Shown piece after piece: positions 45,185-63,052 of a DNA stretch of 64,000 nucleotides. Position 1 is the first letter of the stretch, and every line of letters starts with the position of its first letter. The translations under genes and the position numbers were made by a program. Under the pieces are notes generated by a model. That model was given only the letters and a program-made list of their open reading frames with translations. It was not told where the DNA came from and searched no databases. The DNA is taken from NCBI GenBank assembly GCA_029261055.1, contig JAJDCA010000068.1, positions 133,275 through 197,274 of the forward strand, in the 5' to 3' direction. The stretch comes from Candidatus Omnitrophota bacterium (GTDB lineage: Bacteria; Omnitrophota; Gorgyraeia; Zapsychrales; Zapsychraceae).

Positions 45185-45191
45185 AAATTAA

Positions 45192-45260
45192 TGGGCATGA
45201 TGACTCCTGCCCCTACGAACGACTCGCCCCACCCTGCGTACGGGCATGATTCATCATGCC
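45192..45260. repeat. 65-69 bp palindromic element (gggcatgatga.tc.tgcccctac ... gtacgg.catgattcatcatgccc), copy 1
   Basis: Near-identical copy at 46589..46651 in the same orientation; the two copies bracket gene 45263..46549. Confidence 0.7.
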
Positions 45261-45262
45261 CA

Positions 45263-46549
45263 TTATTGATTAATTATTCCTCTAATCCACTCAATCCCCT
45301 TTGTAATCCCCGCACACGTCGCCTTCACACAAGAATCAAATGGCGCATAGGACGTCTTACCTTTAGTGTGGTACTCTTCTATTAAGTGGATATTTTCTTC
45401 CATTGAAGGGTTTTCTAATCTTTCCTCAATGGCAGCTTCTTTCCCTAAATATTCTTCCCCATAAAATTTTATTTCTTCCCGCACGTACGTCCCATCTTTC
45501 TGTTTTACAGAACACAAGATTTTCACGGCCCGTTGAATCGGAAAGGCCAACGTCCCCTCTAACCCATTGCGAATAATGATGATACCAGGGAAACCTGCTC
45601 GTTCGGCAATAGTCAACATTTTTTCACCATATGGAGGATGAAAGGCCGAGGCAATAACAATTTGGGCATTCACAGGATTCACAAACCGTTCCAATGTAGA
45701 CATAAACGGACGTTTGACAGTTTGCCGCCGTAGATCCACCCACCGGTCCATGGCCTGGGACATGTCCAATTGATGAAGATACCAACCAAAGGATGGTTTA
45801 GCTTTTGCCAACCCCTTCCTACTCTTTAATCTCAATGTCGCATCCAGATCCTGTTGCGCATCTACAAAACCCGACAAATTATTTCCAAACTTTGGCCCGC
45901 TATTGCGCCCCATCAAATTCACCACGCGGTAACCCAAACCTTGCACATGACGTGCCAATAGCGGCGTGACAAAATACGAACGTTTCACACCATCAAAAGG
46001 TTCTGCAATCTGAACAATCGGTTCGCCGTCTGGAATTTCTTCCTGAAAAGGTAATTCAATCGTTGTCTGCAAACTCGCTAAAAGCCCTTCAAATTCATCC
46101 GGCGTTTCGTAACGGACACGCAAAACACTTGCCGCCAATCCTCTCAATCCATCACCAGGCAATGCGGAAAAAAGAAAATCCCCCAATTGTTGAGATGTAT
46201 CCTTGTCTAAAGTTTCTTTTTTTAAAATACGCGCACACAAAGCTTGGATATTAGCCGGGGCATCCGATGCAAGAGCTTTGACAAAAATAGAGTAATCTTC
46301 AAACGCTCCCGCAGGAAAAGCATCAGCCAAAAATTTTTCCTCTTCGGTAACACCCTTAATAAATAAAGCCCCAAAAAAAGCTCCCTTAGCTGCGGCCAGC
46401 ACATGCCCCTCTCTAAACTCACCCAAAATACGCTGAACAAGTTCCGCCGAAAGCGATTTACTCCCGCGCTTGCCCACACCAATTGTCTTTATCCCTTCGA
46501 CGACGGCTGATTGTAAATTTTCTTGAAACATGGGGCCTATTTTACGCAT
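45263..46549 (-). CDS. TrpD-like (glycosyl transferase family 3 fold) protein lacking the canonical GTGGD motif; function unknown
   Basis: N-terminal helical domain LSAELVQRILGEFREGHVLAAAKGAFFGALFIKGVTEEE resembles the TrpD/YbiB N-domain. No obvious catalytic GTGGD. Confidence 0.35.
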   Translation of the reverse strand: MRKIGPMFQENLQSAVVEGIKTIGVGKRGSKSLSAELVQRILGEFREGHVLAAAKGAFFGALFIKGVTEEEKFLADAFPAGAFEDYSIFVKALASDAPANIQALCARILKKETLDKDTSQQLGDFLFSALPGDGLRGLAASVLRVRYETPDEFEGLLASLQTTIELPFQEEIPDGEPIVQIAEPFDGVKRSYFVTPLLARHVQGLGYRVVNLMGRNSGPKFGNNLSGFVDAQQDLDATLRLKSRKGLAKAKPSFGWYLHQLDMSQAMDRWVDLRRQTVKRPFMSTLERFVNPVNAQIVIASAFHPPYGEKMLTIAERAGFPGIIIIRNGLEGTLAFPIQRAVKILCSVKQKDGTYVREEIKFYGEEYLGKEAAIEERLENPSMEENIHLIEEYHTKGKTSYAPFDSCVKATCAGITKGIEWIRGIINQ

Positions 46550-46588
46550 ATTAATGGATAAAGCAAATAATTTAATAAAGACCTTTAA

Positions 46589-46651
46589 AGGGCATGATGA
46601 ATCATGCCCCTACAAGCGACATTCCCCGTACGGTCATGATTCATCATGCCC
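46589..46651. repeat. 65-bp palindromic element, copy 2
   Basis: See 45192..45260. Confidence 0.7.
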
Positions 46652-46671
46652 TAATATTGACACCTACCCAT

Positions 46672-46828
46672 GAAATTGCCCCGTGGGGCAAAAACACAAC
46701 TTAGACAAACATCTACATCTAAGAAATACAGATGCGCGTACGAACTTTCTAAAAAACTAAAGCTCCGTCGCTATTACTGTAAGTTATTACTACGAATACA
46801 TTCCTTAGTTGTGAAATTGCCCCGCGGG
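46672..46828. repeat. two copies of a 20-bp palindrome gaaattgccccg(t/c)ggggcaa, 135 bp apart, upstream of dusB
   Basis: 46672-46695 and 46806-46828. A third partial gaattgcccc lies at 46951 just before the dusB ATG. Confidence 0.6.
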
Positions 46829-46961
46829 GCAACTTCATATCTACATAAAATAAATAAATATTTGTAAATATTTAGCAGATAGCGTGAAAAATGGCTTAGA
46901 CAATCCTCCGAGAATTTGTTTACGGTTGCAATTCTCTACACATTCCATTAGAATTGCCCCC

Positions 46962-47921
46962 ATGAAAATCGGTAATATTGATATTCAAAATCCCCTTGCC
47001 CTGGCCCCCATGGAAGACGTGTCAGATACGGCTTTCCGATTAACGTGTAAACGTTTTGGCGCTGACCTGCTGTACACGGAATTTACCAGTAGCGACGCCT
47101 TGATCCGCGACATCCCTAAGGCCATTGACAAAATCAAAGTCACCGCGGAAGAACGACCTGTTGGCATTCAAATATTTGGAGCCAATGAAGACACCATGAA
47201 AGAAGCGGCTCAAAAAGCCGAAAATTTTCATCCTGATTTTATTGACATCAACTGCGGATGTTGGGTACGCAACCACGTGGCCCGTGGACAAGGCGCAGCC
47301 CTTCTCAAAAATTTGCCTAAAATGGAAAGAATCGTTAAAGCTACGGTCGATGCCACATTTTTGCCTGTCACCGTAAAAACCCGCCTGGGGTGGGATCACG
47401 ACAATATTGTCATCTGCGATGTTGCCAAAATGGTTGAACAAGCCGGCGCCAAGGCTCTTACGGTGCACTGTCGCACACGAAACCAAGCCTACAAAGGAGA
47501 CGCCGATTGGAGTTGGCTGGAAAAAATTAAAAAGGCAACGAACATCCCTGTCATTGGTAATGGAGATGTCACATCTGCGGAAGATGCGAAAAAAATGTTG
47601 GCAACCGGCTGCGATGGGGTTATGATTGGACGCGGTGCCATTGGGAATCCATGGATTTTTAAACACATTAAACATTACCTCGCAACGGGTAAACACCTTC
47701 CGGAGCCTACATTAAGAGAAAGAATTGAGGCGTGCATTACACATTTAAAATTAAGTGTTCAATACAAAGGGACTAAAAACGGAATCATTCCATTCCGAAA
47801 ATATTACGCAGGTTATTTTAAAGGTATTCCGAACTCAGCAAAACTAAGGGCTGACCTGATGCAGCTGGTAGATTTGGAAAAAATTACTGAACGCCTTAAT
47901 CAATTTTTAGAAAAACCTTAA
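46962..47921 (+). CDS. tRNA-dihydrouridine synthase (DusB-like)
   Basis: MKIGNIDIQNPLALAPMEDVSDTAFR matches the Dus N-terminus; FMN/TIM-barrel motifs (INCGC, GNGD) present. The track's earlier start is likely spurious. Confidence 0.8.
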   Translation: MKIGNIDIQNPLALAPMEDVSDTAFRLTCKRFGADLLYTEFTSSDALIRDIPKAIDKIKVTAEERPVGIQIFGANEDTMKEAAQKAENFHPDFIDINCGCWVRNHVARGQGAALLKNLPKMERIVKATVDATFLPVTVKTRLGWDHDNIVICDVAKMVEQAGAKALTVHCRTRNQAYKGDADWSWLEKIKKATNIPVIGNGDVTSAEDAKKMLATGCDGVMIGRGAIGNPWIFKHIKHYLATGKHLPEPTLRERIEACITHLKLSVQYKGTKNGIIPFRKYYAGYFKGIPNSAKLRADLMQLVDLEKITERLNQFLEKP

Positions 47922-47946
47922 ACAGACCTCGTAGGTCTGTTTAAGG
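47916..47946. terminator. REP-variant hairpin aaacagacctcgtaggtctgttt between dusB and the lpd-like gene
   Basis: 11-bp stem with a cgta loop; same cctcg.agg core as the REP family. Confidence 0.5.
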
Positions 47947-47949
47947 TTC

Positions 47950-49374
47950 ATGCATATGAAAAAATACGACGTTATTGTCATTGGTTCTGGAGGCGGGTCA
48001 AAAATTACATCGCCGGCAGCACGACTTGGATTAAAGGTCGCCTGTATTGAACGTTCTGCTCTCGGTGGTACTTGCCTTAACCGCGGATGTATCCCCTCGA
48101 AAATGCTCATCCATCCGGCGGATGTGGCCACGGCCATTAAAGATGCCGGTAAATTCGACATTGCGGTGAATCCATTTTTTGAAGTTAACTTCCCTAATCT
48201 TGTCCAACGCATTTCCCAAACAGTAGACAAAGATTCCTCCAGCATTGCGGCCGGTTATGCACGTAATCCGAATATTGATTTCTATCCTCATGAAGCCAAA
48301 TTTGTTGCTAACAAAATCATTGAAGTCAACGGGGAACAACTCACGTCAGATAAAATTTTTATTGCCGTTGGCGCCCGACCACATATTCCGTCTATTGAAG
48401 GCTTAGCGAATACACCTTACATGACAAGTACTGAAGCTTTGCGCAACACAGATTTGCCTCAAAAAATGATTGTCATCGGCGCAGGTTACATTGCCGTGGA
48501 ACTCGGACATGCTTACGGAGCACTCGGTACCGAAGTGCACTTTCTCGTGCGCAGCCGATTCTTACGTCATGAAGACAGTGAAGTCGCGGCAGAATTTACC
48601 AAGGCCTTTTCCGAACGTTATAATGTTCATATGCAGGCTGTGCCCCAACGCGTTCAATATGCTAATGGTCAATTTTCACTTATTTACCAAAATCAAGACG
48701 GACAGCCTCACAACATTACGGCCGATGCTCTTTTAGTGGCTACTAGCATCACATCTAATACAGACAGTTTAAATTTAGAAAGTACCGACATTGCCGTCGA
48801 TGACAAAGGTCTCATCCAAGTCAATGACCGTTTAGAAACGAATGTTGCAGGTGTTTACGCCATGGGGGACTGTGTCGGTAATTATTATTTTCGACATACG
48901 GTTAATTTCGAAGGCGAATACCTTTTCCATCGTGTTTTTGGCAACGCGCCTGATGAAGCAATCCAATACCCTCCCGTACCTCATGCCGTTTTTTCGTACC
49001 CACAAATTGCTGGCGTTGGAAAAACCGAAGACGAACTCAAACAAGAAGGCATCGACTACGTCGTAGGCCTCAACCACTACCGCCAAAGTGGCATGGGTAT
49101 GGCCCTGCTCTCTGATTACGGATTTTGCAAAATCCTGATTGAACGCAACACTCGAAAAATTCTTGGCGCACACATCGTTGGCGACGAAGCCTCAAATATG
49201 ATTCACATGCTCATTGCCTTTATGAACAAAGAAGGAACACTAGACGATCTCTTAAACATGATTTACATCCACCCCGCGCTACCGGAAATTGTACGTAATG
49301 CAGCACGGAAAGCGGAAATAAACTGGTTAGAAGTAGAGAAACAAGAAACAAAGAAGCAAGAAGTAAAGAAATAA
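47950..49374 (+). CDS. pyridine nucleotide-disulfide oxidoreductase (dihydrolipoyl dehydrogenase family)
   Basis: YDVIVIGSGGGS FAD motif; redox-active GGTCLNRGCIPSK; central NAD motif MIVIGAGYIAVELG; 474 aa. Confidence 0.75.
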   Translation: MHMKKYDVIVIGSGGGSKITSPAARLGLKVACIERSALGGTCLNRGCIPSKMLIHPADVATAIKDAGKFDIAVNPFFEVNFPNLVQRISQTVDKDSSSIAAGYARNPNIDFYPHEAKFVANKIIEVNGEQLTSDKIFIAVGARPHIPSIEGLANTPYMTSTEALRNTDLPQKMIVIGAGYIAVELGHAYGALGTEVHFLVRSRFLRHEDSEVAAEFTKAFSERYNVHMQAVPQRVQYANGQFSLIYQNQDGQPHNITADALLVATSITSNTDSLNLESTDIAVDDKGLIQVNDRLETNVAGVYAMGDCVGNYYFRHTVNFEGEYLFHRVFGNAPDEAIQYPPVPHAVFSYPQIAGVGKTEDELKQEGIDYVVGLNHYRQSGMGMALLSDYGFCKILIERNTRKILGAHIVGDEASNMIHMLIAFMNKEGTLDDLLNMIYIHPALPEIVRNAARKAEINWLEVEKQETKKQEVKK

Positions 49375-49379
49375 AAGGC

Positions 49380-49475
49380 AAAAAAATAAGAAGCACAGGA
49401 ATAAGAAGCAAAGATTAAAAACAAAAATTACTTTTTTACATCTTGCATCTCTACACCTCTGCTTCTTGCCTCTTA
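49380..49475. repeat. imperfect inverted-repeat element (gaagcacaggaataagaagcaaaga ... tctctacacctctgcttcttgcctctta); related copy at 63775..63865
   Basis: Direct sequence comparison of the two loci. Confidence 0.5.
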
Positions 49476-49509
49476 CTTTTCTAGCTCTTTAACTTTAATT
49501 CTAAAAACT

Positions 49510-50238
49510 ATGCGTAATTCTGAAACAGCCATCTCGATTAAAGGCCTCACAAAATTTTACGGTAAATTCCGAGCCTTAAACAATGTTGCTTTTGAAGTCA
49601 AACGTGGCGATTTCTTTGCATTCTTAGGCCCCAACGGTGCAGGCAAGACCACGACCATCAATGTGCTTACAGGTCTTTCGAATTACCAATCTGGTAAAGT
49701 CAACATATTTGGATACGATACCAGCTCCGAATATCTGTTATCCCGTCGACTTATTGGTCTATGCGCCCAGGAATTTAACTTTGACCCGTTTCTAACGATT
49801 CACCAACTCCTTGTGTACCAGGCTGGCTATTTTGGTATTCCACCGAAAAAAGCCACCCGTAATGCGGAAGCCCTTTTAGAACGTTTTCAATTGATTGAGA
49901 AACGCCACGTTAAACATCGCGCCTTATCCGGCGGAATGAAAAAACGCCTGCTACTCTGCCGCGCCCTTATCCACGACCCGGAAATTCTCATCCTGGACGA
50001 ACCTACGGCCGGCTGCGATTTGGAATTAAAATTTCTCATTTGGGATTACCTCACCCAATTAAATAAAGAAGGTAAAACTATTTTTCTTACAACCCATTAC
50101 ATGGAAGAAGCCGAAAAACTCTGCAAAACCATCGGCATCATCAATCAGGGACACATCGTACGTATTGGCGAAAAGAAAAACATATTACAAGACAAGTCTT
50201 TAGAAACCGTATTTTTAGAAGTCACAGGACCAGAGTAG
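49510..50238 (+). CDS. ABC transporter ATP-binding protein (ABC-2/DrrA-type)
   Basis: Walker A GPNGAGKTT, signature LSGGMKKRL, Walker B ILILDEPT. Confidence 0.8.
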   Translation: MRNSETAISIKGLTKFYGKFRALNNVAFEVKRGDFFAFLGPNGAGKTTTINVLTGLSNYQSGKVNIFGYDTSSEYLLSRRLIGLCAQEFNFDPFLTIHQLLVYQAGYFGIPPKKATRNAEALLERFQLIEKRHVKHRALSGGMKKRLLLCRALIHDPEILILDEPTAGCDLELKFLIWDYLTQLNKEGKTIFLTTHYMEEAEKLCKTIGIINQGHIVRIGEKKNILQDKSLETVFLEVTGPE

Positions 50239-50308
50239 TCGCTCGTCGCCAGTGGCTCGTGACTCGTTTTTTTTTTACGAGCGACGCATCACTAGCGACG
50301 AGCCACGT
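50238..50308. terminator. palindromic element with T-run (gtcgctcgtcgccagtggctcgtgactcgTTTTTTTTTTacgagcgacg...cgacgagccacg); family shared with 53800..53893
   Basis: Inverted repeats around a T10 tract directly after the ABC ATPase stop. Confidence 0.55.
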
Positions 50309-50313
50309 TAATT

Positions 50314-51084
50314 ATGATTACAAACCCAATCGGTGTCTTATCTTTATCTAAACGTGAAATTCTGCGATTTTTGTCTGTATCGACACAGACAATTTTCCCT
50401 CCATTGATTACGTCCACCCTCTTTATGTTTATCTTTGGCGTGGCTATTGGGAGCCGTATTGACTTTAGCTCGACCGGCCTGTCTTATTTAGGATTTATTG
50501 TGCCTGGATTAATGACCATGCATTTAATTTCAAGTTCCTATGAAAACACCAGTGCCTCTCTTTTTATTGCCCGCTGGCATAACCACATCCAGGAGGTTCT
50601 CCTTGCGCCGCTTTCTTATTTTGAAATGGTCCTTGGGCTTTTAGCCGGTGGCGTGGTGCGCGGTACCATCGTCTGCTTGGGCGTTTACTTGGTTTCTCTT
50701 TTCTTTGGCCCAACATCCATTCAGCATCCGCTGCTTCTGGCCTATTTTATTGTGACGATATCTGTTATTTTTTCGTGTGCCGGCATGCTGGGCGCGCTGT
50801 GGGCAGAAGATTTTGGCATGTTAAATATGTGGAACATTTATGGCATTGTTCCGTTGGTGTTTATGGGCGGCGTCTTTCATCCGGTCTCTATGTTGCCGCA
50901 AATCGTACAAACAATTTCGAAATTTAACCCGATGTTTTATTTAGTACAAGGCATTCGTTTTAGCGTTACGGGCATAAGCGACGTACCCGTCATCATTGCG
51001 GCTAGCGCTTCTTTTGTTCTTTCTACTGGGGTCTTTTTCCTTACCGTTCATTTATTCAAAATCGGATACAAGCTACGAACCTAA
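50314..51084 (+). CDS. ABC-2 family transporter permease
   Basis: 256 aa, six TM segments, follows the ABC ATPase. Confidence 0.7.
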   Translation: MITNPIGVLSLSKREILRFLSVSTQTIFPPLITSTLFMFIFGVAIGSRIDFSSTGLSYLGFIVPGLMTMHLISSSYENTSASLFIARWHNHIQEVLLAPLSYFEMVLGLLAGGVVRGTIVCLGVYLVSLFFGPTSIQHPLLLAYFIVTISVIFSCAGMLGALWAEDFGMLNMWNIYGIVPLVFMGGVFHPVSMLPQIVQTISKFNPMFYLVQGIRFSVTGISDVPVIIAASASFVLSTGVFFLTVHLFKIGYKLRT

Positions 51085-52619
51085 GCTTTAAAAATCCTTC
51101 GCCAACGAATTCCAAACAACAGCAAAATGACGATGTAATATCCCAGTACCCACCTCGTAGAAATATTGGGAACATTTACATTCGCGTACGGCACCTTACT
51201 AAATACATAAATAACCCCGACCATTACATTAAGCAAAAACTTAAGGCAGGCCGCGCATACCCACAGACCAAACGGCCAAAACCCCCCGACGGACAGCAAC
51301 CCCAACCCCAAAACAACCACGCCGGAAATAAGAGGCACAACGATCAGGTTAGCGACAATGGCAATAGGCGCAACCACATCAAAGTGATAAGCAATCAGCC
51401 CTGTTGAGCCGATCCAGACGGACAAAGATACACTTAATGAATCAATAAATACTTTTGTCAATTTCAACGTTTTATTAGACTCAATCTTAAAACATTTCTG
51501 CAAAATAATTTTTATTTTTGCGCTAAACATGATGATCGACACAACACAAGCAAAAGACAACTGAAAGCCAATATCAAAAAGATTAAATGGATTGAACAAT
51601 AAAATAACCAAAGCTGCAAAACTGAGTGTATTAATAGAGTCTGATTCTTTTTCCAAAATAAAACTCATCAAAAACACACAAATCATCACCGAGGCACGTA
51701 CAACCGAAGGGCGTCCACCTGTTAAAAAAGAATACCCGATTAATAATAAAATTGTCATGCCTAATTGCCACCGACGTCCGATCGGAAACATTTTCAGAAA
51801 AATAAAAAATAACCCAGACACGGCCCCCACATGCAAACCACTAATGGCTAAAATGTGTGCCGTCCCTGTCTGTACAAATAATGTGCGAACATGCTTAGGA
51901 ATTTGTGAACGATCGCCGAGCAAAACGGCCTGCATAATCCCGGATTCATTTTTCGAAAGCGCTTGGTGTAAAATTGCCTTCAACTTATTTCTTAATATTA
52001 ACGAAACACTCCTGAAATAATTTCCTTTCCCTTTTGCAACCACCGTCATTGGAGAATCCTTTTTTACACTTAAAATCAAATGTATGCCGCGCCTCTTGAG
52101 ATACTCTCGATAGGAAAACCGTTCTTCTGGTGCAAAATTGTAAGGATAGTGCAACTTGCCTTCCAACAAAAGATAATCCCCATAAACCACATTAGCCTCA
52201 CAAAAAATATTCACCAAAACCTTCCCTGATTTTTTCCTCCACCCCCACGGTGAACGAACTCGCTTAACCTGTAACGTAAACATAGTCTTTTTACCTTTAA
52301 AAAAATTCCGTTTTTCAACATCCGACACCACAACACCTTCAAGACGAACAGGATTTTTTCGATGATATCTAGCCACATGCACAATATCCCCGGAAGCTAA
52401 TGTTTGATAATTCCTCACAAAAACCATTCCAAGAAGAACAAACACCATCAAAAGCACAATCGACGATAAAAAAGGCTTTCGAAAAACAACAGCATAGATC
52501 ATCATCAAAACAAAAACCGTAAACACGACCAACGTGAACGGCACAACAACATACACCCCACCCCCAATCCCAACCCCAAAAGCCAAAACAATCCACAAAA
52601 ATGGTCGATACGTATGCAT
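51081..52619 (-). CDS. ComEC/Rec2-family competence protein (DUF4131 + competence domain; no metallo-beta-lactamase domain)
   Basis: VQTGTAHILAISGLHVGAV competence-domain signature; polytopic. Start set at MHTYRPF...; the track's longer N-terminus reads through a REP. Confidence 0.65.
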   Translation of the reverse strand: MHTYRPFLWIVLAFGVGIGGGVYVVVPFTLVVFTVFVLMMIYAVVFRKPFLSSIVLLMVFVLLGMVFVRNYQTLASGDIVHVARYHRKNPVRLEGVVVSDVEKRNFFKGKKTMFTLQVKRVRSPWGWRKKSGKVLVNIFCEANVVYGDYLLLEGKLHYPYNFAPEERFSYREYLKRRGIHLILSVKKDSPMTVVAKGKGNYFRSVSLILRNKLKAILHQALSKNESGIMQAVLLGDRSQIPKHVRTLFVQTGTAHILAISGLHVGAVSGLFFIFLKMFPIGRRWQLGMTILLLIGYSFLTGGRPSVVRASVMICVFLMSFILEKESDSINTLSFAALVILLFNPFNLFDIGFQLSFACVVSIIMFSAKIKIILQKCFKIESNKTLKLTKVFIDSLSVSLSVWIGSTGLIAYHFDVVAPIAIVANLIVVPLISGVVVLGLGLLSVGGFWPFGLWVCAACLKFLLNVMVGVIYVFSKVPYANVNVPNISTRWVLGYYIVILLLFGIRWRRIFKA

Positions 52620-52633
52620 GATTTTTTCTCTAA

Positions 52634-52702
52634 CCGTACACAAACCTCGGGGGTTTGTATTGGTTAACCCGTACAAACCCCCGAGGCTTGTTTACGGTTA
52701 AT
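52634..52702. repeat. REP doublet (gtacacaaacctcgggggtttgta ... gtacaaacccccgaggcttgtttac) flanking the 3' side of the RAYT gene
   Basis: Inverted pair of 24-nt REPs. Confidence 0.75.
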
Positions 52703-53378
52703 CTTCTAATGTTAAATGTTTAATTTCCTCTAATTCCCTTTGATACCCAACCCTGTCTTCCACAAACTTCTTGTACTCCCTTGGCAAAATATCCAAAATA
52801 TTATCCCAATACGCAATCGATTTCTTTCGATCATTTATTTTCAAATATTCTAAATAAGAAGAATACGCCCAATCTTCCGGTTTTTCGACTAAGATTGCTG
52901 TCGTTGGATTCAAATGTACATACCGCGTCAAATGCAAAAGCTGCTCATAGGACTCAACCAAAACATTTTTAAATCGTCCAGCCCAAAGAGGCCCCAGCCT
53001 TTTGTATTTCTTGTTAAAAAATCGGGCGTAGCTGTTCAAAACATTTCCCATAAAAATAGATATTCCATCATCAATCAACTGCTTGAGAACAAAGTGAACA
53101 TGTGTAGGCATGAGGCAATAAGAAATAATTTCTACCAATTTGTCTTTTGGATCCGCTACAGAAGAAAGACAACAATCAAAACCTATCTTCTCTACTTGAG
53201 GTAAACGAATAAATTGAGAAAAAGCATAGGGCATATTCTTAAATTGGTAATAACGAATAACATTTAGCATTCTCATAAATTCTGCATTTCCATTAAAAAT
53301 TTTAAACCTTGCAATGCTCTTATTAAACACGTGGTAGCATTCATCTGTAACTAACGGATCTTTCCTTATTATTGCCAT
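52698..53378 (-). mobile_element. REP-associated tyrosine transposase (RAYT; IS200/IS605-like Y1 HuH transposase)
   Basis: YHVFNKSIARFKIF, HuH motif LMPTHVHFVL, catalytic Tyr motif YVHLNPTTAILVEKPEDWAYSSY. Flanked on both sides by REP doublets. Confidence 0.75.
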
Positions 53379-53791
53379 TTGCTTTTCTCCTGTGGAACCG
53401 TAAACAAACCTCGGGGGTTTGTATTTGAACCCCATACAAACCACCGAGGTTTGTTTACGGTTAAGTACCTGTAAAATTTTTCGTAATTTTTGTCGCGGAT
53501 GCCTTTTACAGATTTAATTTGTTCGATTTTTGTAAAGGGTCCATTTATTTGGCGGTATTGTACGATGTTTTTGGCTGTGTATTCGCCGATGTACGGGACT
53601 GTCACTAATTCTTCGGCAGAGGCGGCATTAATGTCGACTTTGGGATAAATGCGGTCGCTGTCAATGAGATTGACAATATCGCGTAGCTGTGGATATTTTT
53701 TAAGGGCATACTGCAGCACTGACCCCGTGAGAATAATCACGGCTAACATTAATAAAACAATTTTTTCTTGTTTTGTAAAATGCATCATCAA
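53369..53791 (-). CDS. ComEA-like helix-hairpin-helix DNA-binding competence protein
   Basis: N-terminal TM, then VDINAASAEELVTVPYIGEYTAKNIVQYRQINGPFTKIEQIKSVKGI (HhH ComEA signature). The last ~20 codons are encoded by the REP. Confidence 0.65.
   Translation of the reverse strand: MMMHFTKQEKIVLLMLAVIILTGSVLQYALKKYPQLRDIVNLIDSDRIYPKVDINAASAEELVTVPYIGEYTAKNIVQYRQINGPFTKIEQIKSVKGIRDKNYEKFYRYLTVNKPRWFVWGSNTNPRGLFTVPQEKSKWQ
53398..53466. repeat. REP doublet (ccgtaaacaaacctcgggggtttgta ... atacaaaccaccgaggtttgtttacgg) on the 5' side of the RAYT gene
   Basis: Same family as 52634..52702, 29401..29520 and 62994..63052. Confidence 0.75.
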
Positions 53792-53799
53792 ATTAGGCC

Positions 53800-53893
53800 T
53801 CGCTTCGCTCGGCGACTTTTAGTGGCTCGTGACACGTGGCGCATCGTTCATAAAAACCGAATCACGAGCCACGCGTCACAAGCGACGAGTCAC
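53800..53893. repeat. palindromic element of the gtggctcgtgac/gtcacgagccac family
   Basis: Shares arms with 50238..50308. Confidence 0.5.
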
Positions 53894-54035
53894 TTTAAAA
53901 TTTTTAAACTAATGGGGAAATCGGGTATTTGGGGAAATACTTCTCTACGGGGATAAAATCCTTCAACGCGCTCGCTCTCGTTCGCTTGCTCAGGATATGG
54001 TGAGCAAGGCCACCGTAGGTGGCTGCGTCGAACCA

Positions 54036-56516
54036 CTAAATAACAATATTCGCCAATTTTCCGGGAATGAAAATAAATCGGCGTAACGGTTTACCGTCAA
54101 CAAAACTTTGAATTTTGGCATCAGCCAAAACTAATTCTTTTACTTCAGCCTCAGTAATGGATGCGGCCACCTGAAATTTAGCCCGCAACTTACCATTCAC
54201 CTGCGCAATAATTTGAACTGTCTCCTGCTTTAAAGCACCTTCATCACATATTGGCCACGGAGACGCAATAATACTCTTTTCTTTATTTCCAAATTTCTGC
54301 CACAACTCTTCACTCATATGCGGCGTAAAGGGCGACAATAAAATAACCAAAGTCTTAATCACTCTGTTTAAAATACCTTGCTTAATCGCACTACCTTCTG
54401 CAAATTTGTACTTATCCACGCTGTTCATCAAAATCATCATACTGCTAATGGCCGTATTAAATTTGTACTTCTCAATATCTTCTGTCACTTTTTTAATCGT
54501 AACATTTCTTTCACGCTCAAGATCCGCATCCGCTTGATCCATCTGATCTTTCGTAATATTGTCATCAACACCATCGACATATCGATTATGCACAAGGTTC
54601 CAAATACGACTTAAGAATTTCCATGAACCGTCGACCGCATTGTCATTCCATTCCAACTGATCTTCGGGTGGCGCCGCAAACAGAATACACAAACGCAAAG
54701 AATCAGCTCCATATCGTGCAATAATACTGTCTGGGTCTACCGTATTACCTCTGGATTTCGACATCACTTCCCCGTCTTTAAGCACCATGCCTTGCGTTAA
54801 CAAACGTACAAACGGTTCATCAAAATCCACCAGACCTAAATCTTTAAAAAACTTTGTAAAAAATCGTGAATACAATAAATGTAAAATCGCATGCTCAATC
54901 CCGCCAATGTATTGATCCACCGGCATCCAATACGCCGCCTCTTTTTTGTCAAAAACCTCTTTGTCATTCTTCGCCGAACAATATCGCAAATAATACCAAG
55001 ACGAATCAAAAAATGTCGCCATCGTATCTGTTTCCCGTCGGGCATCGGCCTGACATTTGGGACACTGCACATTCACAAACTCTGGACATTGCGCCAAAGG
55101 ACTACCACCTTCACCGGTAATTTTAATATCCTGCGGCAACTCAACCGGTAGCTGATCTTCCGGCACAGGCACCACCCCGCAAGCTTCACAATAAATCACA
55201 GGAATAGGCGTGCCCCAATATCTCTGACGAGAAATCAACCAATCCCGCAAACGCCAATGAACGGTCATCTTACCGGCTCCTTCTTGCTCCATCCACTCAC
55301 CAATCGACTTAATCGCGGCACGACTATTAACCCCATCAAACTGCCCTGAATTCACCAGAGCCCCTTCTTCCTCAAATGCACACGTCATATCCTTCTCGGT
55401 CAAATCCGAATTCTTCGCATCCTGAATCACAATCCGCTTAGCCAAACCATGCTCCGTGGCAAACAAAAAATCTCTCTGATCATGCGTCGGCACCGCCATA
55501 ATCGCGCCCGTCCCATAATCCATCAATACATAATCCGCAATCCAAATCGGAACCGCTTCATTGTTCACTGGATTAATCGCGTAACGTCCGGTAAAAGTCC
55601 CTTCCTTTTTCTGATCCCCGGACATACGCAAACTTTTACTTTCCTTGCCAACCTTTTCAATAAACGCTCGAATCTTATCCTCATCTGCCGATCCCTGAAT
55701 CAATCCATCCACCAACGGATGTTCCGGTGCTAGCACCACATACGTCGCCCCAAAAATCGTATCCGGCCGCGTCGTAAACACCGTAATCGTTTCCTCCGCA
55801 TCCTTCACATTAAAATACATATCCACCCCGTAACTTTTGCCAATCCAGTTTTCCTGCATCGCAATCACACGGCTAGGCCAATGTTCAAGTGTCTTTAAAT
55901 CTTCCAGCAGCTTTTCATTGTATTCGGTAATCTTCAAATACCATTGATTCAAATCCTTCTGGGTCACCTCTGTCTTACATCGCCAACACTGATCCTGAAT
56001 CACCTCTTCATTAGCTAACGTCGTCTCACATTGCGGGCACCAATTAACAGACGAGGTCTTTTTGTATGCCAACCCACGCTCCATCATCTTGGTAAAAATC
56101 CACTGATTCCACCGGTAATACTCCTTGTCACACGTCGCCAACTCCCGATTCCAATCATACGAAAACCCCATGCGTTTTAATTCTACCCGCATCTGATCCA
56201 TACACGCATACGTCCACTTCGCCGGATCCGTATTATGTTTAATCGCCGCATTCTCTGCCGGCTGCCCAAACGCATCATAGCCCATCGGATGTAGCACATT
56301 AAACCCCTGCGCCATCTTAAACCGCGCCATACAATCCGCAATCGTGTAATTACGCACATGTCCCATATGAATCTTACCGGAAGGATACGGAAACATCTCC
56401 AGACAGTAATATTTCGGTTTGGATGCATCTTGGTCCGCCTTAAAAATCTTTTGCGCATCCCAAAACTTCTGCCATTTCTCTTCGAGTTCTTTAATTGTGT
56501 GTGTGTTGTAAGTCAT
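54036..56516 (-). CDS. leuS: leucine--tRNA ligase
   Basis: HMGHVRNY (HIGH), KMSKSRGN (KMSKS), 826 aa, CP1 editing domain present. Confidence 0.9.
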   Translation of the reverse strand: MTYNTHTIKELEEKWQKFWDAQKIFKADQDASKPKYYCLEMFPYPSGKIHMGHVRNYTIADCMARFKMAQGFNVLHPMGYDAFGQPAENAAIKHNTDPAKWTYACMDQMRVELKRMGFSYDWNRELATCDKEYYRWNQWIFTKMMERGLAYKKTSSVNWCPQCETTLANEEVIQDQCWRCKTEVTQKDLNQWYLKITEYNEKLLEDLKTLEHWPSRVIAMQENWIGKSYGVDMYFNVKDAEETITVFTTRPDTIFGATYVVLAPEHPLVDGLIQGSADEDKIRAFIEKVGKESKSLRMSGDQKKEGTFTGRYAINPVNNEAVPIWIADYVLMDYGTGAIMAVPTHDQRDFLFATEHGLAKRIVIQDAKNSDLTEKDMTCAFEEEGALVNSGQFDGVNSRAAIKSIGEWMEQEGAGKMTVHWRLRDWLISRQRYWGTPIPVIYCEACGVVPVPEDQLPVELPQDIKITGEGGSPLAQCPEFVNVQCPKCQADARRETDTMATFFDSSWYYLRYCSAKNDKEVFDKKEAAYWMPVDQYIGGIEHAILHLLYSRFFTKFFKDLGLVDFDEPFVRLLTQGMVLKDGEVMSKSRGNTVDPDSIIARYGADSLRLCILFAAPPEDQLEWNDNAVDGSWKFLSRIWNLVHNRYVDGVDDNITKDQMDQADADLERERNVTIKKVTEDIEKYKFNTAISSMMILMNSVDKYKFAEGSAIKQGILNRVIKTLVILLSPFTPHMSEELWQKFGNKEKSIIASPWPICDEGALKQETVQIIAQVNGKLRAKFQVAASITEAEVKELVLADAKIQSFVDGKPLRRFIFIPGKLANIVI

Positions 56517-56522
56517 TTTTTT

Positions 56523-56768
56523 CTACACTTCTTTTGCACATTTGTAACCGTCTATGGCAAATGCAACTATGTAAAAAACACCCGATAGAATTACCCATGG
56601 ATTTTCTAAAATCAAGGATGCTTCAGAATCAGTAAAAAGCCAAACATAAGAAAGCACCTCACCAATAATTAATAATGCTCCGAATAAAATTCGTTTGCCA
56701 ACATAAATATATCCTAATCCAACCAGCAAAATGTTTAATACTGCAGCAAGCCACGGCTTTTTTTTCAT
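56523..56768 (-). CDS. small membrane protein (81 aa, 2-3 TM)
   Basis: Hydrophobic ORF with no recognisable motif. Confidence 0.3.
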   Translation of the reverse strand: MKKKPWLAAVLNILLVGLGYIYVGKRILFGALLIIGEVLSYVWLFTDSEASLILENPWVILSGVFYIVAFAIDGYKCAKEV

Positions 56769-56816
56769 ATTATCTTATCTCCTGCTTTATTTCAGATATC
56801 TAATGAAGAATCGTTC

Positions 56817-57014
56817 CTATTGCACAAATAACAAAATAAACGCCAATAATACAATTAAAACCAAAACAATCCAAATAATTTTCGGACTTGGATACCGAAT
56901 TTTCCCAATCGGCCCTTTACTCGACCGCCGCAAACTCCCCCCACAAAAATGACACAACAACGCATCATCGTCATAAATAGGATTTTTGCAGTTTGGACAA
57001 ATAAATTCGCTCAT
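56817..57014 (-). CDS. zinc-ribbon small membrane protein (65 aa; CPNC...CHFC + C-terminal TM)
   Basis: Two CxxC pairs followed by a hydrophobic tail. Confidence 0.35.
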   Translation of the reverse strand: MSEFICPNCKNPIYDDDALLCHFCGGSLRRSSKGPIGKIRYPSPKIIWIVLVLIVLLAFILLFVQ

Positions 57015-57160
57015 CGCAGGCGCACATTATGCCATCAGAATAATTGAGAGTCAAAGATATTTATCGAGTGGAATAAATGCTGTTTTTGATTCAGATAACG
57101 CTTGAGTTCACCAATGTAAACCGCAAACAAACGTCCAGTGAAGTGATTGGATACGTATAC

Positions 57161-57814
57161 TTATGGAATCTTCGACGGTTTCACTTCCCCCCGCAAAGCT
57201 TTCTGACTAACTTCTTTAATTTGCTTCTCCATTTTCAACAATTTGTCATGCTGATATTCATCAGAATTAAAATAACTATTAAGGCTTCTACGAAGAACAA
57301 TACTAATCGCTATTGCTGCAGCACAGTTATTCCGAACAGTACTAACAAACTCATCATTTTGCGAATCTCTCTTGAAATGAACACTAAATAAATAATCACT
57401 GTAAGTATCTAGCGATTGGTTAAGCGTATCCATACTTTCAATGTAGGACTTAATCAGCGACACTTTATGGAATGGAAGCAATTTGAACAAATTACCATCC
57501 TCGAAGGCTATTCTTGCTGCCGTACTATCGACACGCTTTATACTAAAACACATTGAATTGATGTTAGAATATACCTTCAATACTTCGTGTGCTATAGAAC
57601 CATTGTATTGTGACTCTAGTACAACAAGATGCAGCCTGTGTTTTGTAATTTTATCCTGATAATTTTGATGCCAAAAATCATTTAGCCAAAAGGCAACAAG
57701 GACTCCCAGCATTGTTGCAACAAATGAAATAAGAAAATCCCGGTTACTAATAAATCTCCATAATAGTTTACACTTTTTAATAACAGTCGATATTCTCATT
57801 GTCATTCTTTTCAT
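57161..57814 (-). CDS. hypothetical membrane-anchored protein (217 aa)
   Basis: N-terminal TM (FLISFVATMLGVLVAFWL), soluble remainder without recognisable motifs. Confidence 0.35.
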   Translation of the reverse strand: MKRMTMRISTVIKKCKLLWRFISNRDFLISFVATMLGVLVAFWLNDFWHQNYQDKITKHRLHLVVLESQYNGSIAHEVLKVYSNINSMCFSIKRVDSTAARIAFEDGNLFKLLPFHKVSLIKSYIESMDTLNQSLDTYSDYLFSVHFKRDSQNDEFVSTVRNNCAAAIAISIVLRRSLNSYFNSDEYQHDKLLKMEKQIKEVSQKALRGEVKPSKIP

Positions 57815-58163
57815 TTAATAATTACTCTGTGTCTGCCCCGTTTTTTTTCCACTTAGGACACCTCTGGATAAAACCACTTAATTTCCCCATCATTCTACTC
57901 ATTAATACATTATGCAACAACAAATAACTTCAGTCTATCCTGGTGATCTTCCGAATCATAACTATGCCTAATTTGTATGCTTTCCTCGAATTCTCAAACG
58001 ACAATAGCAAAATTCCATGATTACCCCATTCATTACCCTATTACAAGAATTATTACCCCATTAACCCATCCCGAACTTCGTCACCCACATTTTTTGGCAA
58101 GACATTAAAAAAAATGTTATCCTTTATGTATCTTTCTTTAATATTAGTAAGAATTTATTTTTT

Positions 58164-60551
58164 ATGAAAAATGCACCTCACAATTTATCCAGCCGGTTTG
58201 TGGCTGTAATTACGGTAATTAGCTTTCTATTTAGCATGTTACTACCGTCTCATTCCTCCTACGCCCAAACATCACCGGCTAAATTTAATTTGCCGGCGTC
58301 CGGAACGCTTGTTTCTCTAAGCCAAGACTTCAATCCTGCTGTTATTAAAGGGCTTAAGGTTTTTCCGGACAATCCGTTTCGATTCGATTTTGTGATGGAT
58401 ACGGCAGATTCTGCTTTGGAAGGAGACCATCTTAAGCAAGAATCCGAACGGCTCATCAAATACTTCCTAGCCGCGCTTACAGTGCCGGAAGACGACCTTT
58501 GGGTCAATCTCAGCCCTTATGAGGCTGACCGCATTATCCCCGAAGCCTTTGGCCAAACTGAAATGGGCCGAGACCTCCTGGCACAAGACTTTATCCTCAA
58601 ACAGCTCACCGCCAGCTTGATGTACCCTGAAGATGAATTAGGTGAAAAATTCTGGGACCGCGTGTATGAAAAAGCCCATGCAGAATACGGCCATACGGAT
58701 ATCCCGGTCAACACCTTCAACAAAGTCTGGATTGTCCCGGAAAAGGCGGTGGTGTATGAAAATGCAAAAACTAATACCGCGTTTGTGATGGAAAGCAGAC
58801 TTAAGGTGATGTTGGAAGAGGACTACGAAGCGTTGAACAAAAATAAAATCAACGCTGAGTCCCGAGCAACCTCTGGTGAAGACCAGTTGCGAGGGATCTC
58901 CACGAATATTATCCGCGAAGTGATCATCCCCGCCATAGAACACGAAGTCAACGAAGGGACTCATTTTGCCAAACTCCGCCAAATCTACCATTCCATGATC
59001 CTCGCGACGTGGTTTAAGCGTAACCTAAAACAAAATCTACTCAACAAAATGTATGTCGACCAAAATAAAATCCCCGGTGTTGACATCGAAGACACACAGG
59101 CCAAACAAAAAATCTACAATAAGTACCTCCAAGCCTTCAAAACAGGCGCCTACGATTACATCAAAGAAGAATACGACCCCGCAACGCAGCAAATCATCCC
59201 TAAAAAATATTTCTCAGGAGGAATTCAAGGGCTTAAATTTTCCGATGATGCTATGATTGAAACAGCTCAAAATAATATTTTTGATAAAGATACTTTAACC
59301 CATACGAAATATGTGCACATTAAAGGCGGCTTACTAAGCATTACTCCCAATAAATCAAAAGACAAAGCAACCCTGAGTTCTACCGTTAATAAAACCAATC
59401 ACAATCAACCAAAAATCAGCGTTATTATTCCTAGTTACAATATGGGGAAGACCTTAGAAAAAGCAATAAATAGCGTTTTAAGGCAGACAAACAAAAATAC
59501 TGAAATCATTATTGTGGATGACGGATCGAAAGACAATACAGCAGACGTGATGAGTAGAATTATTCAAGCACACCCCAATATCATTTACATAAAAATGAAA
59601 AAAAACGGAGGCAGATCAGTTGCTTTAAACCATGCTCTAAATCTATTTACCGGTGAATACGTAGCATTCCTTGATGCCGATGATACATTTCCTGACGATA
59701 GTTTAGAGGTACGCTTAAAAGATTTCCAAGATAATCCTGATGTAGATTTTATTTACACGTCTTCCGTTAATCAAACAAACGGTGTAACACGGAGCGTTAA
59801 AAAAGTCAGGTCCATGGAAAGTTCAAGACAACTAGCCATCGCAGCATTGACAGAACTAACAACTCCAACGGCCGTGCCTACATTGATGTATAAAAGAGCC
59901 ATCTTTGATAAAACTAACCCACAACACATTCGATTTGACCCTACAGTGAGGAGATCTCAAGATTACGAATTATTATTTCAGCTTGCTGAAAAAGGATACA
60001 AATCAAAATCTCTTGATAAAATTACGTACAACTATTCACAAGATTATCACGATTTAAAAACAAGACTTAAAAATAGATTATTGACTGTAAAACCGCATAT
60101 AAAAATAACATTACGCTATGAAAAAAACTTTTTTCGTAGAATTTATTATTTTTTACTCATCTTTCGAGAAACTGCACTTAAACTTATCTGGGAGGCTATT
60201 TTCGAAAATAATGATTTTGGGCTTGATAAAAATGCAAAGAATTTAGATAAGTCTGCTCTGACCAAAAAAACCGGCGCCGATCTTGCATTATTAACGACCC
60301 CTGGAGGGATTGACCTTACACCCAATAACCTCGACCTTCAGACCCAAGGCCAAGGCGGGGATTTTGACTTTCCGTTTGCCGAGATTCCCTGTCTAGATGA
60401 TGATACGAAAGGGGCTTGCGAACGAATTAATATTGAAGAACTTGAAAACATGGACATTAACGGTCTGTCTCCTGTGATCTTCCAAATCATACCTATGCCC
60501 AATTTGCATGATTTTCTCGGCCTTGCGAATGATAATGACACAGTTTCCTGA
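58164..60551 (+). CDS. 795-aa multidomain protein: N-terminal signal/anchor plus ~400-aa unknown domain, central GT2 glycosyltransferase domain, acidic C-terminal tail
   Basis: GT-A signature ISVIIPSYNMGKTLEKAI...IIVDDGSKDNT...AFLDADD in the middle. N-terminal hydrophobic FVAVITVISFLFSMLLPSHSSYAQ. Confidence 0.55.
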   Translation: MKNAPHNLSSRFVAVITVISFLFSMLLPSHSSYAQTSPAKFNLPASGTLVSLSQDFNPAVIKGLKVFPDNPFRFDFVMDTADSALEGDHLKQESERLIKYFLAALTVPEDDLWVNLSPYEADRIIPEAFGQTEMGRDLLAQDFILKQLTASLMYPEDELGEKFWDRVYEKAHAEYGHTDIPVNTFNKVWIVPEKAVVYENAKTNTAFVMESRLKVMLEEDYEALNKNKINAESRATSGEDQLRGISTNIIREVIIPAIEHEVNEGTHFAKLRQIYHSMILATWFKRNLKQNLLNKMYVDQNKIPGVDIEDTQAKQKIYNKYLQAFKTGAYDYIKEEYDPATQQIIPKKYFSGGIQGLKFSDDAMIETAQNNIFDKDTLTHTKYVHIKGGLLSITPNKSKDKATLSSTVNKTNHNQPKISVIIPSYNMGKTLEKAINSVLRQTNKNTEIIIVDDGSKDNTADVMSRIIQAHPNIIYIKMKKNGGRSVALNHALNLFTGEYVAFLDADDTFPDDSLEVRLKDFQDNPDVDFIYTSSVNQTNGVTRSVKKVRSMESSRQLAIAALTELTTPTAVPTLMYKRAIFDKTNPQHIRFDPTVRRSQDYELLFQLAEKGYKSKSLDKITYNYSQDYHDLKTRLKNRLLTVKPHIKITLRYEKNFFRRIYYFLLIFRETALKLIWEAIFENNDFGLDKNAKNLDKSALTKKTGADLALLTTPGGIDLTPNNLDLQTQGQGGDFDFPFAEIPCLDDDTKGACERINIEELENMDINGLSPVIFQIIPMPNLHDFLGLANDNDTVS

Positions 60552-60625
60552 GAATATTTAAATTATTCCCCTCCCTCATTATTTTCATTTGCATTTTGAA
60601 AACAACTGGTCTAATATTATCCATC

Positions 60626-61600
60626 ATGAAAATACAGCTAAATGGAACAAATAAAGAGTACGTCGCCTCCCAGAATTTGAAACAATTGATTACCCAAAAT
60701 TGCAAAACGCCTACCGGGATTATTGCGGAAATTAATGGTGACATTGTCAAAGCCCCTCAATGGGAAGAAACGGTGATCAAAGACGGGGATACTGTGGAAC
60801 TGATTGCTTTTGTTGGGGGCGGATGTGGACCTGATATACCTTTAACTATTGCGGATAAAACCTTTACCAGTCGATTTTTTCTCGGTACTGGGAAGTTTAA
60901 AAATAAAACGGATCTCAGCGAAAGTATTACGGCTTCCGGCACAGAAATCGTGACCGTTGCCCTTCGCCGTATTGACTTGGAACGTCACGAAGAAAATATT
61001 CTGGAATACATTCCTAAAAATGTCACTTTATTAACCAATACCTCTGGTGCCCGTACCGCAGACGAAGCGATTCGCCTGGCCCGCCTGGCTCGTGAATCTG
61101 GTTATGGTAACTGGGTTAAAATTGAAGTCATCAATGACTCTAAATATCTATTGCCGGACAATCAAGAAACAATCAAGGCTACCGCAATTCTAGCTAAAGA
61201 AGGATTTGTAGTATTACCGTATGTAACGGCGGATCTGTATGTCGCTCGGGAGTTGGTCAAAGTTGGTGCAGCCACCATCATGCCATTAGGTTCACTCATC
61301 GGCAGCAATCAAGGATTAAAGGCTAAGGAATTTATTAAAGTCCTCATTCAAGAAATTGATATCCCTATCGTTGTGGATGCCGGCATAGGGGCTCCATCGC
61401 AGGCGGCGGAAGCTATGGAACTGGGCGCTGATGCTGTATTAGTTAATACAGCCGTGGCCACGGCAGAACATCCTGCCTTACTCGCCGAAGCCTTTGCCAT
61501 GGCCGTTAAAGCAGGACGTAAAGGTTTCTTAAGTAATCTTCCCGCACAAAAAGACATGGCTAATGCTTCGTCTCCTTTGACGGGATTTCTTTATGAATAA
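60626..61600 (+). CDS. thiG: ThiS-ThiG fusion (sulfur carrier + thiazole synthase)
   Basis: N-terminal ~66 aa ThiS ending ...VELIAFVGGG, then ThiG TIM barrel (KIEVINDSKYLLPD..., IMPLGSLIGS, VDAGIGAPSQAA). Confidence 0.75.
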   Translation: MKIQLNGTNKEYVASQNLKQLITQNCKTPTGIIAEINGDIVKAPQWEETVIKDGDTVELIAFVGGGCGPDIPLTIADKTFTSRFFLGTGKFKNKTDLSESITASGTEIVTVALRRIDLERHEENILEYIPKNVTLLTNTSGARTADEAIRLARLARESGYGNWVKIEVINDSKYLLPDNQETIKATAILAKEGFVVLPYVTADLYVARELVKVGAATIMPLGSLIGSNQGLKAKEFIKVLIQEIDIPIVVDAGIGAPSQAAEAMELGADAVLVNTAVATAEHPALLAEAFAMAVKAGRKGFLSNLPAQKDMANASSPLTGFLYE

Positions 61601-61603
61601 ACT

Positions 61604-62626: not shown

Positions 62627-62642
62627 TGACCCCATACAAAAA

Positions 62643-62987
62643 ATGACTCTACTAAAAAATATTCTTAATTGGATTCTTCCAAACACACAAAACAAAACTT
62701 CTACTCGATCAAAAGAAGAACAAGACCTTATGGACCAAAAAACAGCCTCTCTGGCCCTTTATCATTTCGCCACCTGCCCTTATTGCCTCAAAGTCCGGCA
62801 TGCAATAAAACAATTGAATCTTAATATTGAATTACGTGATACCAGACAAAACAAAACATTTGCCGAAGAATTAATTCAAAGCGGAGGGAAACGACAAGTC
62901 CCCTGCTTAAGAATCACCAAAGACGATGAAAGCGTGCAGTGGATGTATGAGTCGTCGGATATTATCGACTATCTTCAAAAACAATAA
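62643..62987 (+). CDS. glutaredoxin-family protein
   Basis: CPYC active site (YHFATCPYCLKV) and ...QVPCLRI...; 114 aa. Confidence 0.65.
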   Translation: MTLLKNILNWILPNTQNKTSTRSKEEQDLMDQKTASLALYHFATCPYCLKVRHAIKQLNLNIELRDTRQNKTFAEELIQSGGKRQVPCLRITKDDESVQWMYESSDIIDYLQKQ

Positions 62988-62993
62988 TCTCAA

Positions 62994-63052
62994 CCGTAAA
63001 CGAACCTCGTAGGTTCGGGAATCCGAACCTACGAGGTTCGTTTACGGTTAAA
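62994..63052. repeat. REP-variant doublet (ccgtaaacgaacctcgtaggttcg ... cgaacctacgaggttcgtttacgg) between glutaredoxin and radC
   Basis: Same ccgtaaac...gtttacgg frame as the other REPs, with a variant core. Confidence 0.65.

Follow-up and report, generated by a model that had tools for sequence, protein, structure and literature searches.

Described REPtrons and the present locus

Tyrosine transposases associated with repetitive extragenic palindromes (REPs), known as RAYTs, together with REP doublets forming hairpins (REPINs), are the textbook case of a domesticated transposase accompanied by a long-lived population of repeats within the genome, and to our knowledge nearly all work on them has concerned Proteobacteria and Cyanobacteria. 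Here, a RAYT-like gene flanked by REP doublets and lying between the DNA-uptake genes comEA and comEC was analysed in a 64,000-nucleotide stretch of DNA from Candidatus Omnitrophota bacterium (GenBank assembly GCA_029261055.1, contig JAJDCA010000068.1, positions 133,275 to 197,274 of the forward strand), hereafter the window, to which coordinates refer unless a homologous contig is named. The locus is a known kind of system, and falls in a large, distinct branch that is not described in the searched literature. It is very probably a REPtron, that is, an immobile, vertically inherited class 2 Y1/HuH tyrosine transposase (RAYT, TnpA_REP-like) with its cognate REP hairpins.

The REPtron of Escherichia coli (RAYT YafM, or TnpA_REP; Quentin subclass 2.2, Bertels group 2; PDB 4ER8, PMC3479197) has in common with this locus the HuH and single-tyrosine Y-x3-NP core with its W and SS motifs, the position of the gene between inverted REP pairs, the dispersal of REPs in intergenic regions, and low copy number with vertical inheritance. 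The two proteins are only ~14–25% identical and differ in length (226 aa here, 165 aa in E. coli), and a ~35-aa insertion between helix αA and strand β2 and a ~50-aa helical tail are present here only. The REP foot is AACC-GTAAAC here as against GTAG in E. coli, and the density of REPs is much lower here.

By its motifs, the protein is closer to subclass 2.1 TnpA_Y1 (Bertels group 1, ‘TIRYT’) than to any other subclass, with LWEGRFK, Y[IV](H/E)LNP and SSY motifs, a length of ~230 aa and a C-terminal extension in common (PMC6006769, Table 1). WP_130108377.1, a subclass 2.1-type protein carried on an Iodobacter fluviatilis plasmid, is 45% identical over aa 82–175, and only there. Subclass 2.1 genes are reported not to be REP-flanked, and their tails to be helix-turn-helix (HTH)-like or DnaA_C-like (Bac_DnaA_C, HTH_23, HTH_28; PMC6006769), whereas the genes described here are REP-flanked and the tail is without a Pfam match; furthermore, T rather than N precedes the HuH, which lies 33 residues later owing to the extra insertion.

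RAYTs of subclass 2.4 (Cyanobacteria, Bacteroidetes) resemble the present family in that their palindromes are double-foot, one end being the foot and the other its complement, and in that REPs have inserted in frame into the transposase at a variable surface loop, as is seen in the present family for homologues P0023, P0034 and P0068 (PMC6006769). They differ in their motifs (NH[IFV]H, WQ and YIxNNP, against THVH, W[AE] and Y[IV]HLNP here) and in their GT[AG]G foot. IS200/IS605 TnpA transposases (IS608, ISDra2; PDB 2VJV, 2XM3) are alike in the Y1 HuH fold, and recognise subterminal hairpins in single-stranded DNA (ssDNA). The αA–β2 position of the insertion is not listed for any subclass in Quentin et al. 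2018 (PMC6006769, Table 1). Rather than a canonical RAYT, the protein is a member of a distinct family that carries an additional insertion as well as a C-terminal tail.

Transposase gene and protein

The transposase gene was assigned from Pfam and NCBIfam matches, fold and alignment:

52698..53378, minus strand: gene for a RAYT-like Y1/HuH tyrosine transposase, 226 aa

The best candidate start is the ATG at 53378, with a GGAG Shine-Dalgarno sequence eight bases upstream, and the stop codon occupies 52698–52700. A motif scan together with a family alignment located YHV (strand β1), THVH (HuH), RYVHLNP (catalytic tyrosine) and W..YSSY. The first-pass annotation had described a 227-aa open reading frame (ORF) with the full Y1/HuH motif set; the motifs stand, and the length is corrected to 226 aa. 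Key residues are H93 and H95 of the HuH, the catalytic Y153 within RYVHLNP, W132, W170 and S174–Y175; together with N157, all of these are invariant in a 30-sequence family alignment. Both the HuH and Y-x3-NP are kept at 79 of 80 homologue genome loci. These 80 are the best of at least 589 loci, and all hairpin, context and motif statistics given below rest on them, 76 being evaluable for hairpins.

The Pfam Y1_Tnp profile, which had been proposed earlier as a check, matched at 29.6 bits against a gathering score of 23, the match being partial and restricted to profile positions 38–119. The REP_Tyr_transpos equivalog (NF047646) was the sole NCBIfam match of the protein, and likewise the sole match for all 30 aligned homologues. 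A PDB sequence search returned E. coli TnpA_REP (4ER8) as the closest solved structure, the alignment pairing HVH with HMH, YVHLNP with YIYINP, and DWAYSS with DWPFST. An AlphaFold2 model, built with 30 homologues (pLDDT 86, pTM 0.84), was searched against the PDB using Foldseek, and the best structural match was again 4ER8, a RAYT crystallised on its own REP hairpin (E 2e-7, TMt 0.71); the IS608 and ISDra2 transposases came next. Neither the Pfam profile nor 4ER8 has an equivalent of the insertion (~aa 45–80), and the C-terminal tail (aa 176–226) is helical and conserved in the family alignment, with no match in a Pfam scan.

A motif scan found a single copy of a RAYT-type gene within the window. 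An identical protein (P0001) is recorded both from an NCBI contig and from a Logan assembly (run SRR15505515). Over the whole element, Logan contig L001 agrees with the window at every base, and the element is therefore not an assembly artefact.

REP structures in the window

Structures built from the REP were found on both sides of the gene and at three further sites:

53396-53462: upstream REP doublet (REPIN-like), in the spacer between comEA and the RAYT start, 29-nt arms, 97% complementary
52631-52700: downstream REP doublet, separating the end of RAYT from the beginning of comEC, 35-nt arms, 89% complementary
29397-29515: pair of degenerate REP doublets in tandem, lying in the intergenic space that separates a Peripla_BP_2 gene from a TonB_C gene
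47914-47948: single double-foot hairpin variant, between dus and a pyridine-nucleotide-disulphide oxidoreductase gene
62992-63049: perfect variant REP doublet, between a convergent glutaredoxin-like gene and radC, 27-nt arms, 100% complementary

In the REP unit of this genome, a foot of 10 nt (AACC-GTAAAC) precedes a 7-bp hairpin (ACAAACC / TCGGG / GGTTTGT). A doublet is made of two inverted units, the outer feet of which pair, and the whole doublet folds to a 29–35-bp stem; in the upstream doublet the units lie at 53400–53423 (+) and 53435–53458 (−), with outer feet AACC...GGTT. The 24-nt REP (GTAAACAAACCTCGGGGGTTTGTA) is present as an exact copy at 53400–53423, with one mismatch at 52636–52659 (+), 52672–52695 (−) and 53435–53458 (−), and with three mismatches at 29422–29445. 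These 5 matches in the window compare with 0.00 expected from dinucleotide-preserving shuffles, and the degenerate REP core gave 16 matches against 0.08 expected. The core AAACCTCGGGGGTTTG is the commonest 16-mer in the window, tied with the core of a second, GTAG-foot repeat family (see Other features of the window).

In an inverted-repeat search, the downstream and upstream doublets were the top pairs, and the doublet at 62992–63049 ranked third; the search also returned both doublets at 29397–29515 and the hairpin at 47914–47948. Folded as ssDNA, the flanking doublets reach −27 to −32 kcal/mol (z −8.5 to −10.5), the upstream doublet by itself −30 to −32 kcal/mol (z about −9 to −10), and all REP structures in the window −16 to −35 kcal/mol (z −8.5 to −12.5). 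The doublet at 62992–63049 reads CCGTAAAC-GAACC-TCGTA-GGTTC, and its stem changes are compensatory. The hairpin at 47914–47948 reads AACC-TTAAAC-AGACC-TCGTA-GGTCT-GTTTAA-GGTT, and the same simpler form, a single double-foot hairpin, is seen in related lineages; such a hairpin can derive from a dimer via central deletion (Quentin et al., PMC6006769). The bracketing of the ORF by inverted pairs of a 24-nt REP, as claimed in the first-pass annotation, is thus borne out, and the additional copies that it placed at 29401-29520, 47916-47946 and 62994-63052 are real, with the limits listed above; REP copies therefore occur in the window beyond the flanks of the gene, and at all three of these sites they lie between ORFs.

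Several of the feet coincide with stop codons. The TAA of the TTAACC (or TTAAAC) foot is the stop codon of the RAYT gene (52698–52700), of dus (47919–47921) and of radC (63048–63050). For RAYT, the same arrangement is found in the homologous loci L007, L015 and L089, and in many family members the downstream hairpin overlaps the RAYT stop codon (distances −1 to −12). In L007 and L015 the stop of comEA is also a TAA inside the REP foot; the comEA frame in the window is offset relative to the foot, and neither TAA is in frame.

Two Logan short-read contigs, L001 (window 46586–58853) and L095 (window 58838–63051), break exactly at REP doublets (46586 and 63051), as expected if the repeats are multi-copy in the genome or lower the coverage. 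A scan of metagenomes with the REP pattern gave one solo match, on one JGI contig.

The wider family and its hairpins

A word-based search yielded 1,685 clusters at 90% identity, most of them ~223 aa long and 55–60% identical to the query, the named clusters being from Omnitrophota, Berkelbacteria or Kazan. An exhaustive profile search yielded 667 clusters at 50% identity (E ≤ 1e-30), within a superfamily of 35,533 (E ≤ 1e-3), and at least 589 encoding loci were confirmed in GTDB species representatives. By label, the best 80 of these comprise 39 Omnitrophota, 15 ‘Planctomycetia’/‘Planctomycetales’ metagenome-assembled genomes, 16 Patescibacteria (Berkelbacteria, Saccharibacteria, Yanofskybacteria, Kazan and others) and 10 others; the labels are not fully reliable, the proteins of L010 (‘Kazan’) and L011 (‘Planctomycetia’) being identical.

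Palindromes of at least 10 bp were present within 60 nt of the gene at 63 of the 76 evaluable loci, and on both sides of it at 41 of them, and manual inspection of three homologue loci showed the same palindrome bracketing the gene on both sides. Hairpins of at least 10 bp were found in 72% of 120-nt intervals abutting the gene, as against 10% of control intervals from the same loci. The stems are species-specific and the frame is common, with a G+C-rich apex (ACC-YC..GR-GGT). AACC stands at the 5′ foot of 61 of 113 family hairpins (background 3.6%), so that the hairpin foot conserved family-wide is AACC, not GT[AG]G.

An explanation of the palindromes without reference to the transposase would be that they serve the comE operon and other genes as ordinary hairpins for regulation or termination, with the Y1 protein as a neighbour that has no functional link to them. 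Hairpins at gene ends, often over stop codons, would fit such an explanation, as would the single hairpin at 47914, which resembles a terminator stem. We consider it very unlikely, since no T-run follows the stems, and a promoter and terminator scan of 50900–56800 gave counts not above those of shuffles and did not call the REPs as terminators. In addition, a species-specific palindrome on both sides of the gene in 41 of 76 loci, in unrelated contexts across phyla, and the excess over control intervals are not accounted for by ordinary hairpins, nor is the conservation of the AACC foot across phyla, and the top structural match of the neighbouring protein is a RAYT crystallised on a REP hairpin.

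REP-like sequence was also observed within the coding sequence of some family members. In L003, the flanking REP occurs a third time, in frame within the transposase gene at 5382–5409 of that contig; this copy falls in the variable loop before the HuH and encodes HFPPRRW. An in-frame REP encoding HFPPRRW is likewise present in homologues P0023, P0034 and P0068, of which P0068 appears to carry two units.

The comEA-RAYT-comEC locus and its age

The genes on either side of the transposase gene were assigned from their domains:

53369..53791, minus strand: comEA (HHH_3, E 1.6e-21)
51081..52622, minus strand: comEC (DUF4131 + Competence, E 1.1e-63), 513 aa

All three genes are on one strand, downstream of leuS. 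The HHH_3 domain of comEA ends near 53459, and the ORF continues for 29 codons across the upstream doublet (TVNKPRWFVWGSNTNPRGLFTVPQEKSKWQ) to a stop at 53369, overlapping the RAYT start; an independent gene call on L001 gave a comEA product of 139 aa, also overlapping. The start of comEC is 8 nt downstream of the REP doublet at 52631–52700.

Among the closest ComEC relatives, the order leuS-comEA-Y1_Tnp-comEC recurs in L007 (a contig that ends inside the region), in L015/L087/L088 (L087 and L088 being the same contig as L015) and in L089/L090. Identities among the lineages with this order are 69–76% for LeuRS, 66–70% for ComEA, 51–55% for ComEC and 56–60% for RAYT. A neighbour-joining tree built from 83 members of the family places the four RAYTs located between comEA and comEC in an exclusive clade. 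The flanking hairpins are homologous in the four lineages (TTAACC-NTAAAC-[stem]-loop-[stem]-GTTTAN-GGTT), with compensatory stems (AAACC/GGTTT in the window, AAACACC/GGTGTTT in L015, TGACCCC/GGGGTCA in L007 and GGACTCC/GGATCC in L089). The common position, the exclusive RAYT clade and the homologous hairpins indicate that the element entered the comEA-comEC spacer in a common ancestor and was then inherited vertically. The first-pass annotation had the element as inserted between comEA and comEC; its location is upheld by the HHH_3 and Competence domains of the neighbours, and the notion of a recent event gives way to an ancient, vertically inherited arrangement.

In L091/L092, comEA and comEC are adjacent without a RAYT gene, and the 386-nt comEA-comEC spacer of L091, inspected by eye, has no REP-like palindrome. 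L091 was considered as a clean empty site and rejected, since this lineage is distant, with ComEA only 36% identical. A general link between the family and competence genes was also considered and rejected: 76 of the 80 sampled family loci are in unrelated contexts, not beside comEA or comEC, and one of these genes adjoins the transposase gene in only 4 sampled lineages.

The three genes share a strand and are tightly spaced, and no T-runs follow the hairpins. RAYT is therefore probably transcribed together with comEA and comEC, with the REP hairpins probably serving as RNA structures in the comEA-RAYT-comEC transcript.

The conserved position also bears on whether the transposase has been recruited by its neighbours. 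HuH enzymes act on ssDNA, and ComEC imports DNA as ssDNA. RAYT, in place in the comEA-comEC operon since before the lineages diverged, might have been co-opted into DNA uptake in this Omnitrophota clade, where it would be co-expressed with ComEA and ComEC and process incoming ssDNA, cutting or editing it at REP-like hairpins, or where the REP hairpins would tune comEC expression and thereby set the ComEA:ComEC expression ratio. Besides this common substrate, the same strand and position in four diverged lineages and the tight intergenic spacing, with the comEA ORF overlapping the RAYT start, are in keeping with such a role. We nevertheless regard it as a long shot: with 76 of 80 family members in unrelated contexts any link would be clade-specific, comEA and comEC are adjacent in L091 without a RAYT gene, and a conserved position is expected of any immobile RAYT. 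If true, co-option would mark the first time that a RAYT is assigned a host function.

The neighbouring genes vary among relatives. In a domain scan, the ComEC of the window has no metallo-beta-lactamase domain, and the ComEC proteins of related Omnitrophota are also short (~510–530 aa), with DUF4131 and Competence only and without a metallo-beta-lactamase domain; in several relatives ComEC is ~835–840 aa and adds YfiO (PF13525) and TPR domains (the relatives compared include proteins P0154, P0180, P0187, P0200 and P0239). In L089 (5333–6000) and L090 (5584–5991), the RAYT-comEC spacer is ~670 nt longer, and holds an RHH_1-like ORF and an apparent short duplicate of the 5′ end of comEC. A DDE_Tnp_1 transposase gene lies downstream of comEC in L089.

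Immobile RAYT or insertion sequence

The fold and the Pfam family are common to IS200/IS605 TnpA, hairpins are found at both ends of the gene, 76 of 80 family loci are in unrelated contexts, and some genomes hold two family members, all of which would be expected if the element were an autonomous IS200/IS605-type insertion sequence (IS), with the hairpin regions as its left and right termini, that had moved as one unit into the spacer between comEA and comEC. We hold this to be unlikely, and the conserved position together with the divergent paralogues refutes it in large part: the position is kept across lineages with LeuRS 69–76% identical, in which the RAYT clade is congruent, and the two copies within a genome are only 53–65% identical, as against ~99% for IS200 (PMC6006769). 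The tyrosine motif is Y-x3-NP, which is that of class 2 (RAYT), and not the Y-x3-Q of IS200 (PMC6006769, Table 1). Other features of IS200/IS605 TnpA are likewise not seen: the protein, at 226 aa, includes an insertion and a tail instead of being a ~150-aa core only, no tnpB, frequent in IS200/IS605, is adjacent to the gene, and multi-copy near-identical units are not seen, the window having a single copy. Solo hairpins without the gene occur in the window and in the flanks of homologues. Searches of plasmid and phage collections found no full-length relatives, only distant matches to the core domain. The association with hairpins, the solo copies, the divergent paralogues and the lack of full-length relatives in the plasmid and phage collections show the element behaving as a RAYT rather than as an IS.

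Several results weigh against a REPtron. The NCBIfam REP_Tyr_transpos score, 50.5 bits, is under the curated cut-off of 80. The foot of the 7-bp hairpin in the window REP is GTAA or GTAC, the canonical GT[AG]G being missing, as it likewise is in subclasses 2.6 and 3 (PMC6006769). The closest described relative, subclass 2.1, is reported to be REP-free (PMC6006769). REP density is low, with ~6 sites in 64 kb of the window, and the 10-kb flanks of homologues contain 24 solo palindrome copies in 756 kb (0.3 per 10 kb); given these two densities, REP proliferation is modest compared with Pseudomonas or E. coli. Finally, palindromes are what the hairpin test selects for, and covariation from one genome to another can therefore count only in part as independent evidence.

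The identification as a RAYT within a REPtron, made in the first-pass annotation, is nonetheless strengthened by the 4ER8 fold match, the flanking hairpins of homologues across the family, the low copy number with divergent paralogues, and the position conserved in related lineages, and we regard it as very probably correct.

Proposed mechanism

By analogy with E. coli TnpA_REP and IS608 TnpA, the RAYT would bind a REP hairpin in ssDNA, for example on the lagging-strand template, and may read the conserved foot, here AACC-GTAAAC. Cleavage would proceed through Y153, with a metal ion held by H93, H95 and N157. Rejoining of the strands would then spread or excise REP doublets, the RAYT’s own gene not being moved.

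Other features of the window

A second, unrelated family of REP doublets was found at 45189–45265 and 46589–46652, with a canonical GTAG foot (reverse strand, GTAGGGGCATGATTCATCATGCCC). These doublets flank the gene 45263..46549, which was considered as a second transposase gene and rejected, being YbiB/TrpD2-like. No cognate RAYT of the GTAG-foot family was found within the window, and a second, canonical RAYT cognate to these REPs may be located elsewhere in the genome. Two long imperfect palindromes are unlike either REP family: a repeat with 30-nt arms (GTCGCTCGTCGCCAGTGGCTCGTGACTCGT) at 50238–50306, between two ABC-transporter genes, and one with 29-nt arms at 12004–12063. An Rfam scan of the whole window gave no family at gathering score, and no tRNA genes were found in the window.

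Implications

No paper linking RAYTs with Omnitrophota or Patescibacteria was found in the searchable literature, in which this large, well-conserved family, 55–60% identical across phyla, is not described. The family extends REPtrons to ultra-small, streamlined genomes, and ties REP association to the branch nearest subclass 2.1, which was thought to be REP-free. Its AACC foot, a different conserved hairpin foot, is a concrete candidate variant of DNA recognition, and the conserved comEA-RAYT-comEC position provides a dated, orthologous locus for RAYT-REP co-evolution.

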